IMG/VR virus record: IMGVR_UViG_2671180770_000004
Location: 1 to 15,142 of that record
Direction: 5' to 3' (one strand)
DNA: 15,142 bases
Source: a virus
Lineage: Duplodnaviria > Heunggongvirae > Uroviricota > Caudoviricetes
The translations under genes were made by a program, and so were the position numbers. The notes beneath the pieces were generated by a model. It saw only the letters and a program-made list of their open reading frames with translations. It had not been told where the DNA came from and made no database searches. Within the stretch, counting starts at the first letter, position 1. The number at the start of each line of letters is the position of its first letter. Positions 1,125 through 4,505 of this stretch are shown here, piece by piece.

Positions 1125-1268
1125 TTAGTGAATGCTTTTGCTTGATCTCAGTTTCAGTATTAATATCCATTTTTTATAAGCGTCGACGGCTTCACGAAAC
1201 ATCTTTTCATCGCCAATAAAAGTGGCGATAGTGAATTTAGTCTGGATAGCCATAAGTGTTTGATCCAT
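1125..1268 (-). CDS. kil: Kil (host-killing / FtsZ inhibitor), 47 aa
   Basis: C-terminal 47 aa of track ORF 1125..1394 ([47 protein letters not shown]) matches lambda Kil by recall. ATG at 1268-1266. Its 3' end overlaps the gam long-form start, as in lambda. Confidence 0.8.
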
Positions 1269-1401
1269 TCTTTGGGACTCCTGGCTGATTAAGTATGTCG
1301 ATAAGGCGTTTCCATCCGTCACGTAATTTACGGGTGATTCGTTCAAGTAAAGATTCGGAAGGGCAGCCAGCAACAGGCCACCCTGCAATGGCATATTGCA
1401 T
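1237..1401 (-). CDS. cIII: CIII, FtsH/HflB protease inhibitor, 54 aa
   Basis: C-terminal 54 aa of track ORF 1237..1503 ([54 protein letters not shown]) matches lambda CIII by recall. ATG at 1401-1399 preceded by AAGGAG RBS. Confidence 0.85.
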   Translation of the reverse strand: MQYAIAGWPVAGCPSESLLERITRKLRDGWKRLIDILNQPGVPKNGSNTYGYPD

Positions 1402-1462
1402 GGTGTGCTCCTTATTTATACATAACGAAAAACGCCTCGAGTGAAGCGTTATTGGTATGCAT

Positions 1463-1489
1463 ATAAAAAGGCCCTCACACTGGAGGGCA
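1463..1489 (-). terminator. Putative intrinsic terminator in the leftward (pL) operon
   Basis: Minus strand reads GCCCTC-CAGTGT-GAGGGC followed by CTTTTTATAT: a GC-rich 6-bp stem with a U-run. Lies between the 156-aa ORF and cIII. Confidence 0.5.
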
Positions 1490-1592
1490 AAGAAGATCTC
1501 CAATAATCAGAACAAGTCGGCTCCTGTTTAGTTACGAGCGACATTGCTCCGTGTATTCACTCGTTGGAATGAATACACAGTGCTTACTCGTA

Positions 1593-2063
1593 CTAATAAA
1601 ATACCCAATTTTCTGTTTCTTGGTTGTGCCCAAAGTTATATTCAATATCTGGTGTTGATGTATCAATATTCTTCATCCCATCAACAAGAGTTGATACAAC
1701 AGCCAAATCTTGTTTGATTCTCATTAAATGGTATTTCTTCCGGCGCAATAAACTTTCAATGGCAAGTTTCTTCGTTGGGAATGCAAAAGATCTTTCTGCA
1801 TTTTTTGCTACTTTCTTAATTGCATATCTATTTCTCTTTTGTTTCCATTCCTGTAACCACTGATTTGGTGCTGGTTTAAAATTAACAATCCAATGCGCAG
1901 GAACCAACCATGCATAATGCTCTGTCTGATGAAAAGCTATATATTGAAGTGCGAATATTTTGATTCCATCTTCTTCAACTGTCGCCTGGAATCTCCAGAA
2001 AACAGGCATTCCATCATGTTCAGTTTCTGATTCAGGAAAAGGTACGCTCCATGATTTTGTCAT
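1593..2063 (-). CDS. Hypothetical protein, 156 aa, AT-rich accessory gene between N and cIII
   Basis: Intact ORF with strong RBS (GAGGTGA 6 nt upstream of ATG at 2063-2061). AT-rich relative to flanking lambda-like genes. No family recognised. Confidence 0.6.
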   Translation of the reverse strand: MTKSWSVPFPESETEHDGMPVFWRFQATVEEDGIKIFALQYIAFHQTEHYAWLVPAHWIVNFKPAPNQWLQEWKQKRNRYAIKKVAKNAERSFAFPTKKLAIESLLRRKKYHLMRIKQDLAVVSTLVDGMKNIDTSTPDIEYNFGHNQETENWVFY

Positions 2064-2125
2064 ATCTCACCTCAAATAAGTGGCTTGCTGCCAAAACAAT
2101 GAACCATCCGGAAATTCCAGATAGT

Positions 2126-2350
2126 TCATAATTCACTCTTCAATACTTCCAACTTACTAATCGCCGATAGATATCCGCGCTGATAGGTCATCATCATTCC
2201 TTCGAGCTTGCCACTTCTTAACTCCTCCCTGAGCAATTGTATTGCTTGATCAATAACCTCTGCCTTAGCGTCCTTTATGGCTTGCTTGCGGGGCTTTGCT
2301 TTCTGCTTTGGCAGATTTCTCAAGCATGATGGAATGTATGTCTGATTCAT
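2126..2350 (-). CDS. Hypothetical small basic protein, about 74 aa, translationally coupled to N
   Basis: ATG at 2350-2348 lies 3 nt after the N stop (minus strand GAGGTAAGTGATG; the GAGG in the last N codons serves as RBS). No family recognised. Confidence 0.5.
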   Translation of the reverse strand: MNQTYIPSCLRNLPKQKAKPRKQAIKDAKAEVIDQAIQLLREELRSGKLEGMMMTYQRGYLSAISKLEVLKSEL

Positions 2351-2353
2351 CAC

Positions 2354-2626
2354 TTACCTCGCTGTCAGTTGTTTTGATTTCCGGTAGCCTGCCGCGTAAA
2401 TGGCTACGTTTGGCAGGCAAATACTTCCACTGCATTCATCTGCCTTCTTGCAGCGAAGGCTTCCGAGTGATGCTGCTTTATCTGCTCTGACGCAACCAGA
2501 GAGCTTTAGCGCAATTTTTCGCGCCAGTCGCTGCTCTTGCATTGCCTGTTCACGTTGAGCCTGTCTGCGTGCTCTGCGGCGATTTCTGGCGTTATCGTCA
2601 GCCAGATATGTAATGACTACTGTCAT
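2354..2626 (-). CDS. N: N-type transcription antiterminator (P22 gene 24 / phi21 N family)
   Basis: 90 aa with an N-terminal arginine-rich motif (NARNRRRARRQAQREQ) and a C-terminus ...LPNVAIYAAGYRKSKQLTAR resembling P22 gp24 by recall. GGAGG RBS 5 nt upstream. First gene downstream of oL/nutL. Confidence 0.8.
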   Translation of the reverse strand: MTVVITYLADDNARNRRRARRQAQREQAMQEQRLARKIALKLSGCVRADKAASLGSLRCKKADECSGSICLPNVAIYAAGYRKSKQLTAR

Positions 2627-2734: not shown

Positions 2735-2775
2735 CCCGCATTTCGGCGGGACAATCCCATCAATGTTAAAGAGCC
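2735..2775 (-). promoter_or_regulatory. nutL: boxA plus boxB hairpin
   Basis: Minus strand reads GGCTCTTTAACA (boxA, rrn/P22-like), a 13-nt spacer, then CCCGC-CGAAAT-GCGGG (5-bp stem, 6-nt loop). The same boxB and a near-identical boxA recur downstream of cro. Confidence 0.6.
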
Positions 2776-2821
2776 TGCCAAGCTGTTCCGTTTGGCTTCC
2801 AGCGTCCTGCTGATGGCTAAA

Positions 2822-2908
2822 GAATACTGTAGGTATTTTATTATGTAAATACCCAAGGTATTTATTTTTGGTGAAATAATGATAAGCAAATGAATACAAA
2901 GGATATTT
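2822..2908. promoter_or_regulatory. oL operator cluster (three 17-bp dyad sites) with embedded pL
   Basis: GAATACtgtagGTATTT (2822-2838), AAATACCcaaGGTATTT (2847-2863), GAATACaaaggATATTT (2892-2908). Half-site consensus about AATAC. Same dyad family as the oR sites. Confidence 0.55.
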
Positions 2909-2993: not shown

Positions 2994-3362
2994 TTAGTCA
3001 GCGAAGGTTAAGACGAGAATTACCTTAATGATGTCTGCTACAACAGACACGGCCATAGATAAACCAAAGACGATCCAAGCCATAGAGATGTCTTCACTAC
3101 CATCGTATAGAGTTCCGTAATCACTGGTGTAAGGCGTAAATGTCGCGCCTTGATACAATAGGTATAAGCTTGATCCATAGAGGATAAATGCAGATATCCC
3201 TTGTATTGCCATGATCACCAGAATCATGAAACGAGCTGATCTATGCGCCCAAGCCTGGCTTATTTTTTCTGATAGAGATTTCGCAATAAAAGCATGCGCT
3301 AAGCCGTAAATTGTCGAGATTGCCAACATCCCAAAAAAGCTTGCTATAGCGGTTCCAACCAT
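2994..3362 (-). CDS. Small polytopic membrane protein (about 122 aa) downstream of cI in the rexAB position; candidate exclusion/defence protein
   Basis: Track ORF 2994..3383. Probable ATG at 3362-3360, 17 nt after the cI stop, with a GGGG purine-rich RBS. About three predicted TM helices (AIMVGTAIASFFGMLAISTIYGL, FMILVIMAIQGISAFILYG, MAWIVFGLSMAVSVVADIIKVILVL). No similarity to lambda RexA/RexB recognised. Confidence 0.6.
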   Translation of the reverse strand: MVGTAIASFFGMLAISTIYGLAHAFIAKSLSEKISQAWAHRSARFMILVIMAIQGISAFILYGSSLYLLYQGATFTPYTSDYGTLYDGSEDISMAWIVFGLSMAVSVVADIIKVILVLTFAD

Positions 3363-3379
3363 AATCGCCCCTTGCGTGA

Positions 3380-4096
3380 TCAAACCAGCCTTAGTTTTGT
3401 CTCAATTGCAACGCCTATAATCTTGCAGTTTCCATTGATTGGCACGAGAGGCCATGCAGGATTAAGTCCCTTGAGGTATTTATTTCCGCCGTCGATTATC
3501 AGCTTCTTGAATGTTGCTTCGTTAGAGTCAGAAAGTTTTGCTATGACCAAGCTGCCGTTGATCGCCTCCCTTCCGGTATCGAAAAGAACGAATGTTCCCT
3601 CTGGAATGCTTAACCCAACCGGTGCCGTCATTGAATCACCTTCCACTTTAAGCCAGAACGCATTACCTTGAATATGCGCGTCAGACTCAAGCCAAACATC
3701 TATGTCTTTAATGGTGTATGGTTCGCATGCTTCACACCACGAGCCAGCCTGGATACTGCTTAACACCGGATACCTCTTTCCTGCTCTGTATTCCCCTGCA
3801 TACCTTACGTTGGCATCGCTCTTAAGGCTTTCTGCCTGTTCTGCAACCTTGGCAGCAATTGACTGGCTAAAATCAGCAATTGAGACTTGCAACAATCGTG
3901 CAAAACCAGATGCAACCTCAACGTTTAGCGCATTTCTGCCATTAAGATAATGCCCTACCGCTCCTTGGGTGATACCCAGTTCATCAGCGATTGAGTATTG
4001 GGTTATTCCCAATTCTTTCTTTTTTGACTCATACAAAGCCTTAAGCCGCTTAGCGTCTTCGAGCTGTTCTGTCGTCAGTGATTTTTTATTTTCCAT
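3380..4096 (-). CDS. cI: CI-type prophage repressor (HTH N-domain plus LexA/S24-like autocleavage C-domain)
   Basis: 238 aa. N-terminus MENKKSLTTEQLEDAKRLKALYESKKKELG resembles lambda cI. C-domain ...SWCEACEPYTIKDIDVW...FWLKVEGDSMTAPVGLSIPEG...FKKLIIDGGNKYLKGLNPAWPLVPINGNCKIIGV resembles 434 cI by recall. Divergent from cro across the operator region. Confidence 0.9.
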   Translation of the reverse strand: MENKKSLTTEQLEDAKRLKALYESKKKELGITQYSIADELGITQGAVGHYLNGRNALNVEVASGFARLLQVSIADFSQSIAAKVAEQAESLKSDANVRYAGEYRAGKRYPVLSSIQAGSWCEACEPYTIKDIDVWLESDAHIQGNAFWLKVEGDSMTAPVGLSIPEGTFVLFDTGREAINGSLVIAKLSDSNEATFKKLIIDGGNKYLKGLNPAWPLVPINGNCKIIGVAIETKLRLV

Positions 4097-4130
4097 AGCT
4101 TAATTCTAATAGCTAAGGTACTTAAACTAA

Positions 4131-4173
4131 AAATACCCTGAGTATTGATTGTTTTGAATACCTGTAGTATTCT
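4131..4173. promoter_or_regulatory. oR operators with pR
   Basis: 17-bp dyads AAATACCctgAGTATTG (4131-4147) and GAATACctgtaGTATTC (4156-4172, perfect palindrome). Candidate pR -35 TTGATT (4145-4150), 17-bp spacer, -10 TATTCT (4168-4173), directed toward cro. A third operator and pRM are likely in 4097-4130 but not resolved. Confidence 0.6.
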
Positions 4174-4202
4174 TTGTTCATGGTTAATAACGGAGAGTGC
4201 AT

Positions 4203-4397
4203 ATGATTCGAATGACACTTGCCGATTACGCCAAAATCCATGGACAGGCTAAAGCAGCCAGTGACTTTGGTGTAATCCAGTGCGCTATCAGCAAGGCCAT
4301 TCTGGCAGGCCGTAACATTATGGTTACGGTAAAGCCTGATGGCAGTGTGATTGGAGAGGAGGTTCGACCTTTCCCAAGCAACAAGAAAAACAAATAG
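4203..4397 (+). CDS. cro: Cro repressor
   Basis: [64 protein letters not shown] aligns with lambda Cro by recall (...[34 protein letters not shown]). GGAGAG RBS 5 nt upstream of ATG 4203. The track starts at an upstream GTG (4197). Confidence 0.85.
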
Positions 4398-4403
4398 TAA
4401 CAC

Positions 4404-4446
4404 CGCTCTTTAACAGTCATGGTCCTCATTCCCGCCGAAATGCGGG
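4404..4446 (+). promoter_or_regulatory. nutR: boxA plus boxB hairpin
   Basis: CGCTCTTTAACA (4404-4415), 15-nt spacer, CCCGCCGAAATGCGGG (4431-4446), the same boxB as nutL. Followed by hairpin GCGCA-tcagttgg-TGCGC (4455-4472), a possible tR1-like element. Confidence 0.65.
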
Positions 4447-4505
4447 AATACAACGCGCATCAGTTGGTGCGCATAACTTCTTATTTGTTAAGGAAATACT
4501 TACAT

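Follow-up and report, generated by a model that had tools for sequence, protein, structure and literature searches.

ORF74 and ORF156, two separately distributed genes between N and cIII in the early-left operon of a lambdoid (pro)phage

The interval between N and cIII and its regulatory sites

In phage lambda, the genes sieB, ral and ea10 lie between N and cIII. In the stretch of viral DNA analysed here (15,142 nucleotides of IMG/VR record IMGVR_UViG_2671180770_000004, referred to below as the window), this interval holds two other minus-strand genes, one for a 156-aa protein (ORF156, 1593..2063) and one for a 74-aa basic protein (ORF74, 2126..2350), which raises the question of what these genes are, whether they belong together and what they might do. 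The sequence-only reading had described them as a two-gene AT-rich insert in an anti-restriction and exclusion hotspot, with an anti-defence or host-takeover function or else the nature of a toxin-antitoxin-like or regulator-effector pair. We consider it rather probable that the segment consists of two independent early-lytic accessory cassettes of the lambdoid pL operon and not of one two-gene unit.

The window belongs to a mosaic lambdoid (pro)phage whose early-left (pL) operon is on the minus strand, with the transcription order candidate pL, nutL, N, ORF74, a hairpin, a linker with a ribosome-binding site (RBS), ORF156, two hairpins, cIII, Kil and Gam. The candidate pL promoter (TTTACA-17-TATTCT, 9 of 12 matches in the consensus scan; inferred position 2821..2849, minus strand) sits between the cI-distal membrane ORF and nutL. 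The nutL site (2735..2774, minus strand) has an exact twin in nutR (4405-4446, plus strand), since both contain the identical rrn-type boxA (GCTCTTTAACA) and identical boxB hairpins (CCCGCCGAAATGCGGG), and the nut sites were matched in none of 200 shuffled sequences. The N antiterminator that follows is a 90-aa protein of the HK620 type (2354..2626, minus strand; Pfam N_peptide, 1.1e-15; phrog_271, 4e-34). At the other end, the variable slot is bordered by cIII together with its 5' thermoregulator RNA (1237..1414, minus strand; Rfam RF01804, 88.5 bits, the RNA itself at 1356-1414), and the translation is that of a lambda-type cIII. The 3' non-coding tail of ORF156 (1461..1592, minus strand) contains a GC-rich hairpin terminator candidate at 1471-1488, and a second terminator-like hairpin (1431..1450, minus strand) lies just upstream of cIII, both of them from a terminator scan and folding. 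No promoter-like site was found when the minus strand was scanned from 1100 to 2820. Judged from these sites, the pL operon here is an intact, N-antiterminated one. Thus, the placing of the two ORFs between N and cIII is right, and their early, pL-driven timing, which had also been proposed, is supported by the presence of nutL and nutR and by the absence of an internal promoter-like site. The segment corresponds to the ral/sieB/ea10 segment of lambda both in genomic slot and in pL-driven early expression.

Directly after cI, where lambda has rexB and 933W has stk, there is a minus-strand ORF (2994-3383, with a probable ATG at 3362) encoding a 122-129-aa protein with about four hydrophobic spans. 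It matches phrog_6534, a family of unknown function, and has no Pfam or PADLOC match; it could be an exclusion or abortive-infection protein expressed in the lysogen.

The two proteins and their relatives

ORF74 belongs to phrog_5305, its residues 1-74 aligning with profile positions 1-71 of 71 (E 1.9e-37), and it is the same protein as that of the mEp213 gp46/HK225 gp41 family, its identity being 98.6% with mEp213 gp46 and with the proteins of mEpX2 and ECP1, but 49% with HK225 gp41. Its 41 homologues are from Enterobacterales wherever the source names the organism, and distant homologues were found in virulent phages and in Pseudomonas and Vibrio phages. The protein is basic (pI 9.72), and AlphaFold2 predicts a basic N-terminal tail followed by a helical hairpin (pLDDT 87). 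The junction of the gene with N reads TAA-GTG-ATG: the stop codon of N (TAA, 2356-2354) is followed 3 nt further on by the ATG of ORF74 at 2350, and a GAGG is located six nt 5' of this ATG. The 3-nt spacing is kept in all 78 loci having upstream sequence, in which the start codon is ATG (73 loci) or GTG (5 loci) and the preceding TAA closes an N-type frame. Moreover, two different upstream sequence classes, corresponding to at least two N types, have the same junction. ORF74 is thus a fixed 3' appendage of the N gene or module, and its description as a basic protein translationally coupled to N agrees with the pI of about 9.7 and with the invariant junction. The ORF74 homologue of HK225 starts the series of annotated genes about 300 nt past the annotated pL-type promoter, and no N is annotated between them (L010, 2176-2713); outside HK225, the family has the same 3-nt coupling to N and the same terminal hairpin. 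As for the annotation of this junction, RefSeq/PGAP calls an alternative-frame 56-aa ORF over the end of N (positions 2265-2435 of the window, minus strand; L004, 3801-3971) instead of ORF74 in E. coli 2018-05-5CC, and in other genomes ORF74 is left unannotated.

ORF156 aligns over its whole length with phrog_1636 (residues 1-156 on profile positions 1-156 of 156, E 5.4e-112), and it is the same protein as an unannotated ORF of H-19B (100% identity), L0079 of 933W (99.4%) and gp45 of HK97 (98.7%). Its position in the pL operon of these phages, on the downstream side of N, is likewise the same; the difference is that here it follows ORF74 and not N directly. The gene has a strong RBS, as had been noticed, with GAGGTGA four nt ahead of the start codon (GAGGTGAGAT-ATG). 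It is clearly AT-rich, with a GC content of 35.9% and a GC3 of 28%. The claim that both genes are AT-rich relative to their flanks holds for ORF156, whereas for ORF74 it stands only in part, as its GC content of 43.1% is below that of N (50.9%) and of the Red region (51.8%) but close to the window mean (43.5%). ORF156 is also basic (pI 9.05), with a net charge of about +13 over residues 61-120. One of its five AlphaFold2 models reached a pLDDT of 77.7 and the remaining four were at or below 60.5; the best model has a three-stranded sheet (residues 19-55), short helices and a long helix (98-130) in the strongly basic region, after which comes the conserved C-terminal motif NFGHNxETExWxF. An exhaustive profile search gave a superfamily of 87 representative relatives, distributed over phrog_1636, phrog_13631 and phrog_25384, most of which are in a similar size range barring fragments and two long outliers; the 31 relatives that were aligned have 131-169 aa and share a common core and an aromatic-acidic C-terminal end. 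None of the short ones among the 87 has a Pfam domain. The matches in BFVD were all uncharacterised phage proteins, and the same predicted fold was seen in those from phages of Erwinia, Sinorhizobium, Delftia, Rhizobium, Tenacibaculum and Cellulophaga. The neighbours of the distant members vary (a ParB-HTH protein twice, Rha, ASCH, SLOG and DUF6378), and no conserved partner gene was found when one was sought near them. Homologues of ORF156, of ORF74 or of both are carried by the virulent phages Bas81, NX263, LIET2 and Sasha.

Both ORFs were compared with diverged homologues at 38-64% identity, and the alignments of both proteins contain many invariant residues. Because pN is far below pS in ORF156 (0.20 vs 0.78) and in ORF74 (0.33-0.37 vs 0.74-0.93), the comparisons indicate that both are real genes under purifying selection. 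On the other side, one prophage (variant c26 of the IMG/VR loci L098-L177) has a frameshifted ORF156 of 84 aa, truncated after about residue 41, which shows that the gene can decay in prophages.

Neither protein resembles those known from this slot. At E<=1, Pfam gave no match of either ORF to Ral (PF11058), SieB or DUF2528; scans against NCBIfam and PADLOC gave nothing significant for either; and the PDB, searched by single sequence as well as by profile, yielded no match below E 0.03. Profile-profile comparison with hhalign yielded probabilities of 0.07% for ORF74 against the Ral of phi367 and 0.1% for the ORF156 superfamily against the Ea10 of the 933W-like Stx phage vB_EcoS_P32, and no relation of ORF156 to the 138-aa gene of STEC379 or to orf184. 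In addition, neither protein has a hydrophobic or transmembrane span, unlike SieB. The proposal that the two genes are unlike those of lambda is therefore borne out by the Pfam and hhalign results, and the remote-homology search, which had been named as a check, returned no confident homology to proteins of the sieB, ral or ea10 type. Both proteins are hypothetical in every source: a profile search of 5.8 billion proteins returned only the name 'hypothetical protein', and literature searches, including those for 'HK97 gp45' and '933W L0079', gave nothing relevant. DNA mimicry of the Ocr/ArdA type, whose proteins are strongly acidic, was also considered and is ruled out because both proteins are basic.

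Separate distribution and exchange at the slot

The distributions of the two genes are different. Of 5426 complete E. coli genomes, 598 (about 11%) carry ORF156; ORF74 is present in 149 E. coli genomes. The contiguous arrangement of ORF74 and ORF156 aligned in one piece with a single complete E. coli genome, NZ_AP027886. Among IMG/VR loci, ORF74 is present in 4 of the 80 ORF156 loci, while ORF156 is present in 20 of the 80 ORF74 loci and adjacent in 14; these loci are the 80 most similar tblastn matches per query with near-duplicate prophages included, so that the counts reflect diversity and should not be read as independent events. ORF156 comes directly after N, with no ORF74 in between, in 933W-like phages and in strain 14EC047; in mEp213 and HK225, genes other than ORF156 come after ORF74, the next gene being orf184 in mEp213 where it is ORF156 here. 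Other genes can also be interposed between the two, namely ral in phi367 and the Nmad5 gene in STEC379, and in the virulent phage Bas81 their homologues are about 17 kb apart. A type II toxin-antitoxin system would be expected as an adjacent, co-inherited unit, and the locus counts (4/80), the genome counts (598 vs 149) and the interposed genes show a different picture. Furthermore, no toxin or antitoxin domain (Pfam, NCBIfam, PADLOC) and no promoter-like site of its own was found for either gene. Despite their non-independence, the locus counts suffice to reject an obligate pair. On this comparative sequence evidence, the proposal of a toxin-antitoxin-like or regulator-effector pair appears largely refuted, and the term 'two-gene insert' is misleading for what are two independent insertions.

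The sequences around the two genes suggest how they came to be neighbours. A hairpin with a 14-bp stem followed by UGUUUUGG (2089..2129, minus strand) overlaps the stop codon of ORF74 and is a tL1-like terminator candidate of the ORF74 cassette. Its stability (dG -20.8 kcal/mol, z -4.75) was equalled in none of 200 shuffles, although the stem is AU-rich (5 GC pairs of 14) and the U-run is modest (5 U within the next 8 nt). The hairpin is nearly invariant in 80 loci and is missing where ORF156 directly follows N. It is followed by a conserved linker/RBS of about 30 nt (2061..2095, minus strand; GGCAGCAA[A/G]CCACTTATTTGAGGTGAGAT-ATG), which precedes many alternative cassettes, connects N straight to ORF156 in 933W-like phages and flanks ral on both sides in phi367. 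In blastn against related loci, homology breaks off sharply at three points (1460/1461, about 2095 and about 2357), which delimit two modules, 1461-2095 and about 2096-2357, and the boundary at 1460/1461 recurs in several phages. The repetition of the linker on both sides of ral suggests cassette exchange by linker recombination, and exchange would probably take place by recombination at the common linker and at the recurrent 1460/1461 joint. Lambdoid phages exchange modules in a mosaic way at conserved boundary sequences, a pattern known from comparative genomics of HK97/HK022 and of P22-like phages. The likeness here lies in the sharp breakpoints at gene boundaries and in the short linker repeated around inserted cassettes; the slot is a clean example of this known mosaic pattern, with nothing unusual.

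The gene in the first position behind the ORF74 linker belongs to at least 12 unrelated families among 55 scorable loci. These are ORF156 (13 loci, one of them frameshifted), an 83-aa protein (10), DUF7446 (9), orf184/mEp213_045 (6), a 149-aa membrane protein (4), Nmad5 (4; the name is RefSeq's own product name) and others, all of them preceded by the same linker/RBS. Nine first-position families besides DUF7446 were scanned, and no Pfam match was found. Over the whole N-cIII interval, related loci contain ral, the Nmad5 nucleotide-modification gene, SieB-like and Ea10 genes and many unknowns. In relatives, ral, Ea10 and SieB-like genes are found together with ORF156 or ORF74. The two genes add to the lambda slot genes and do not replace them, and they have no sequence or profile similarity to them. 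The slot combines variable content, conserved flanks and a known counter-defence gene, as a counter-defence hotspot would: behind ORF74 there are at least 12 first cassettes, and ral, Nmad5 and orf184 are among the genes of the slot. It is a recognised accessory hotspot, which supports the hotspot idea of the sequence-only reading, and the comparison of the slot across lambdoid phages, which that reading had asked for, gave variable content and separate distributions of the two genes.

An accessory region with ral and orf184 has been described by Silas et al. (bioRxiv 10.1101/2023.04.06.535777), according to whom orf184 triggers the Gop-beta-cII abortive system and cell death. In that region, orf184 occupies the exact position of ORF156, right after the ORF74 hairpin and linker. 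From its first 15 residues in the AlphaFold file of Silas et al. (MEALVVERSEDGYWT) and from the gene table, orf184 was identified as AFM76385.1, i.e. mEp213_045 (L003, 2160-2483), which lies directly after the ORF74 homologue in mEp213; it recurs directly after ORF74 in the IMG/VR loci L103, L129, L137 and L138. This identification rules out that orf184 is one of the two ORFs studied here. The table of 200 accessory genes tested by Silas et al., compared by protein sequence, is without ORF156 and ORF74, and neither protein is present in the supplements of two papers by these authors. For phi367 and phi296, DefenseFinder as run by the authors of these phages reported only a methyltransferase, Ral and Gam (PMC12502783).

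Possible functions and other genes of the window

Given this layout, ORF74, being coupled to N and placed ahead of a stable hairpin, would probably be made alongside N on the earliest pL transcripts, when antitermination has not yet set in. Because ORF156 lies beyond that hairpin, it would probably be an N-dependent delayed-early product. With its AU-rich stem and modest U-run, the hairpin makes this division into immediate-early and delayed-early a matter of inference. ORF156 would then be one of at least 12 alternatives that plug in behind the linker/RBS at the first position of the accessory region. Both proteins most likely act in lytic growth on a host or defence component, in counter-defence or host takeover. 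A lytic role is favoured over one in the lysogen because lysogens repress the operon, in which neither gene has a promoter-like site of its own, and because homologues are found in phages that are strictly virulent. Counter-defence or host takeover is put first because of the slot-mates ral, Nmad5 and orf184, and by this analogy a counter-defence role is plausible for ORF74 and for ORF156; guilt by association with ral and orf184 is a weak argument, as the slot also has SieB-like and Ea10 genes, whose functions are different or not known, and orf184, for which an experimental phenotype exists (the Gop-beta-cII trigger), is unrelated in sequence to ORF156 and ORF74. As to the mode of action, ORF156, with its strongly basic centre behind a predicted N-terminal beta-sheet, probably binds nucleic acid, and ORF74, predicted as a basic helical hairpin, probably associates with a macromolecular partner and may do so as a dimer.

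A bolder version of this reading would make the ORF156 superfamily a new and widespread class of early nucleic-acid-binding proteins that neutralise or trigger host immunity, with ORF74 as an immediate-early partner of N having a separate host target. The superfamily comprises 87 representative clusters from phages of many hosts, and no counterpart was found in the PDB by sequence or profile search; nevertheless, we regard this version as unlikely. Paralogues of the superfamily may exist within single virulent phages, of which LIET2 is a candidate case. This virulent Pantoea myovirus has the ORF156-superfamily protein gp069 and, in addition, gp064, which is annotated as similar to NW77_134 of phiEa2809 (the gene pair is at 4025-4480 and 5866-6297 of L009), and the two may be paralogues if NW77_134 is the phiEa2809 protein matched in BFVD.

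The explanation ranked second, after counter-defence or host takeover, is that ORF156, and possibly ORF74, is an accessory factor of DNA metabolism, which would bind phage or host DNA in support of recombination, replication or transcription and would not target defences. Its rank is due to the basic core of ORF156 and to the frequency of replication and recombination genes among the neighbours. In a Vibrio phage, the homologue adjoins RecE; in Bas81 and NX263, it is the first gene of an operon with a ParB-HTH protein, and a gene further downstream is annotated as RusA-like in Bas81 and as the beta subunit of DNA polymerase III in NX263; in a Klebsiella phage, it is near a primase and a ParB-like gene; and in the lambdoid phages, ORF156 is upstream of the Red or Erf genes. 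Such a role is rather unlikely.

It has also to be considered that ORF74 serves N itself, either as a stabiliser against proteolysis, in the way cIII protects cII, or as a modulator of the antitermination complex. The coupled junction, which all 78 loci share whichever of at least two N types they carry, would fit this, as would the place of the HK225 homologue as the first annotated gene after an annotated pL-type promoter and a weak, non-significant similarity of ORF74 to the I-domain of HslU (E 0.17). However, that same HK225 has no annotated N beside its ORF74 homologue, other homologues, carried by virulent siphoviruses and by phages of Pseudomonas and Vibrio, are away from any N, and many phages have the same N without ORF74. 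A role as an N accessory is thus improbable.

It is more improbable still that both genes benefit the prophage in the manner of sieB or rex, through superinfection exclusion or through lysogenic conversion. Some relatives do carry SieB-like genes in the slot, and ORF156 is AT-rich like many morons, but both genes belong to the repressed pL operon and lack a promoter-like site of their own, neither encodes a transmembrane segment as SieB does, and some homologues are carried by virulent phages, for which there is no lysogenic state. Finally, a functional pair of ORF74 and ORF156 is hardly credible. The genes adjoin and are co-oriented here and ORF156 is the commonest single occupant after ORF74 (13 of the 55 scorable loci, including the frameshifted copy), but they are separable and differently distributed, genes come between them in phi367 and STEC379 and some 17 kb in Bas81, and a hairpin terminator candidate lies between them here, with neither an own promoter-like site nor toxin or antitoxin domains.

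Taken as two independent early-lytic cassettes, ORF74 and ORF156 are ordinary accessory genes, already deposited as hypothetical proteins in model and Shiga-toxin phages, and the current understanding of lambdoid phages is unchanged by them. Still, ORF156 is found in about 11% of complete E. coli genomes, in the Shiga-toxin phages 933W and H-19B and in the model phage HK97, always as a hypothetical protein or an unannotated ORF, and its slot is the one where proven counter-defence (ral) and defence-triggering (orf184) genes exchange. The slot position and the prevalence of ORF156 make both genes reasonable candidates for an anti-defence screen, in which they are better treated separately than as a pair. 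In addition, the conserved linker and the N-ORF74 junction are exact handles for mining the cassette repertoire of the slot.

Two further genes were noted in the right part of the window. A 617-aa ORF (9213-11066, minus strand) runs opposite to the surrounding genes of the nin region (NinB, NinG and Q); it matches phrog_9230, of unknown function, has no Pfam or PADLOC match and may be a moron or a defence gene. Upstream of the NinG ORF and overlapping its start, there is a gene for an HNH endonuclease with a weak AP2-domain match (11473-12120, plus strand), which is probably a homing endonuclease.
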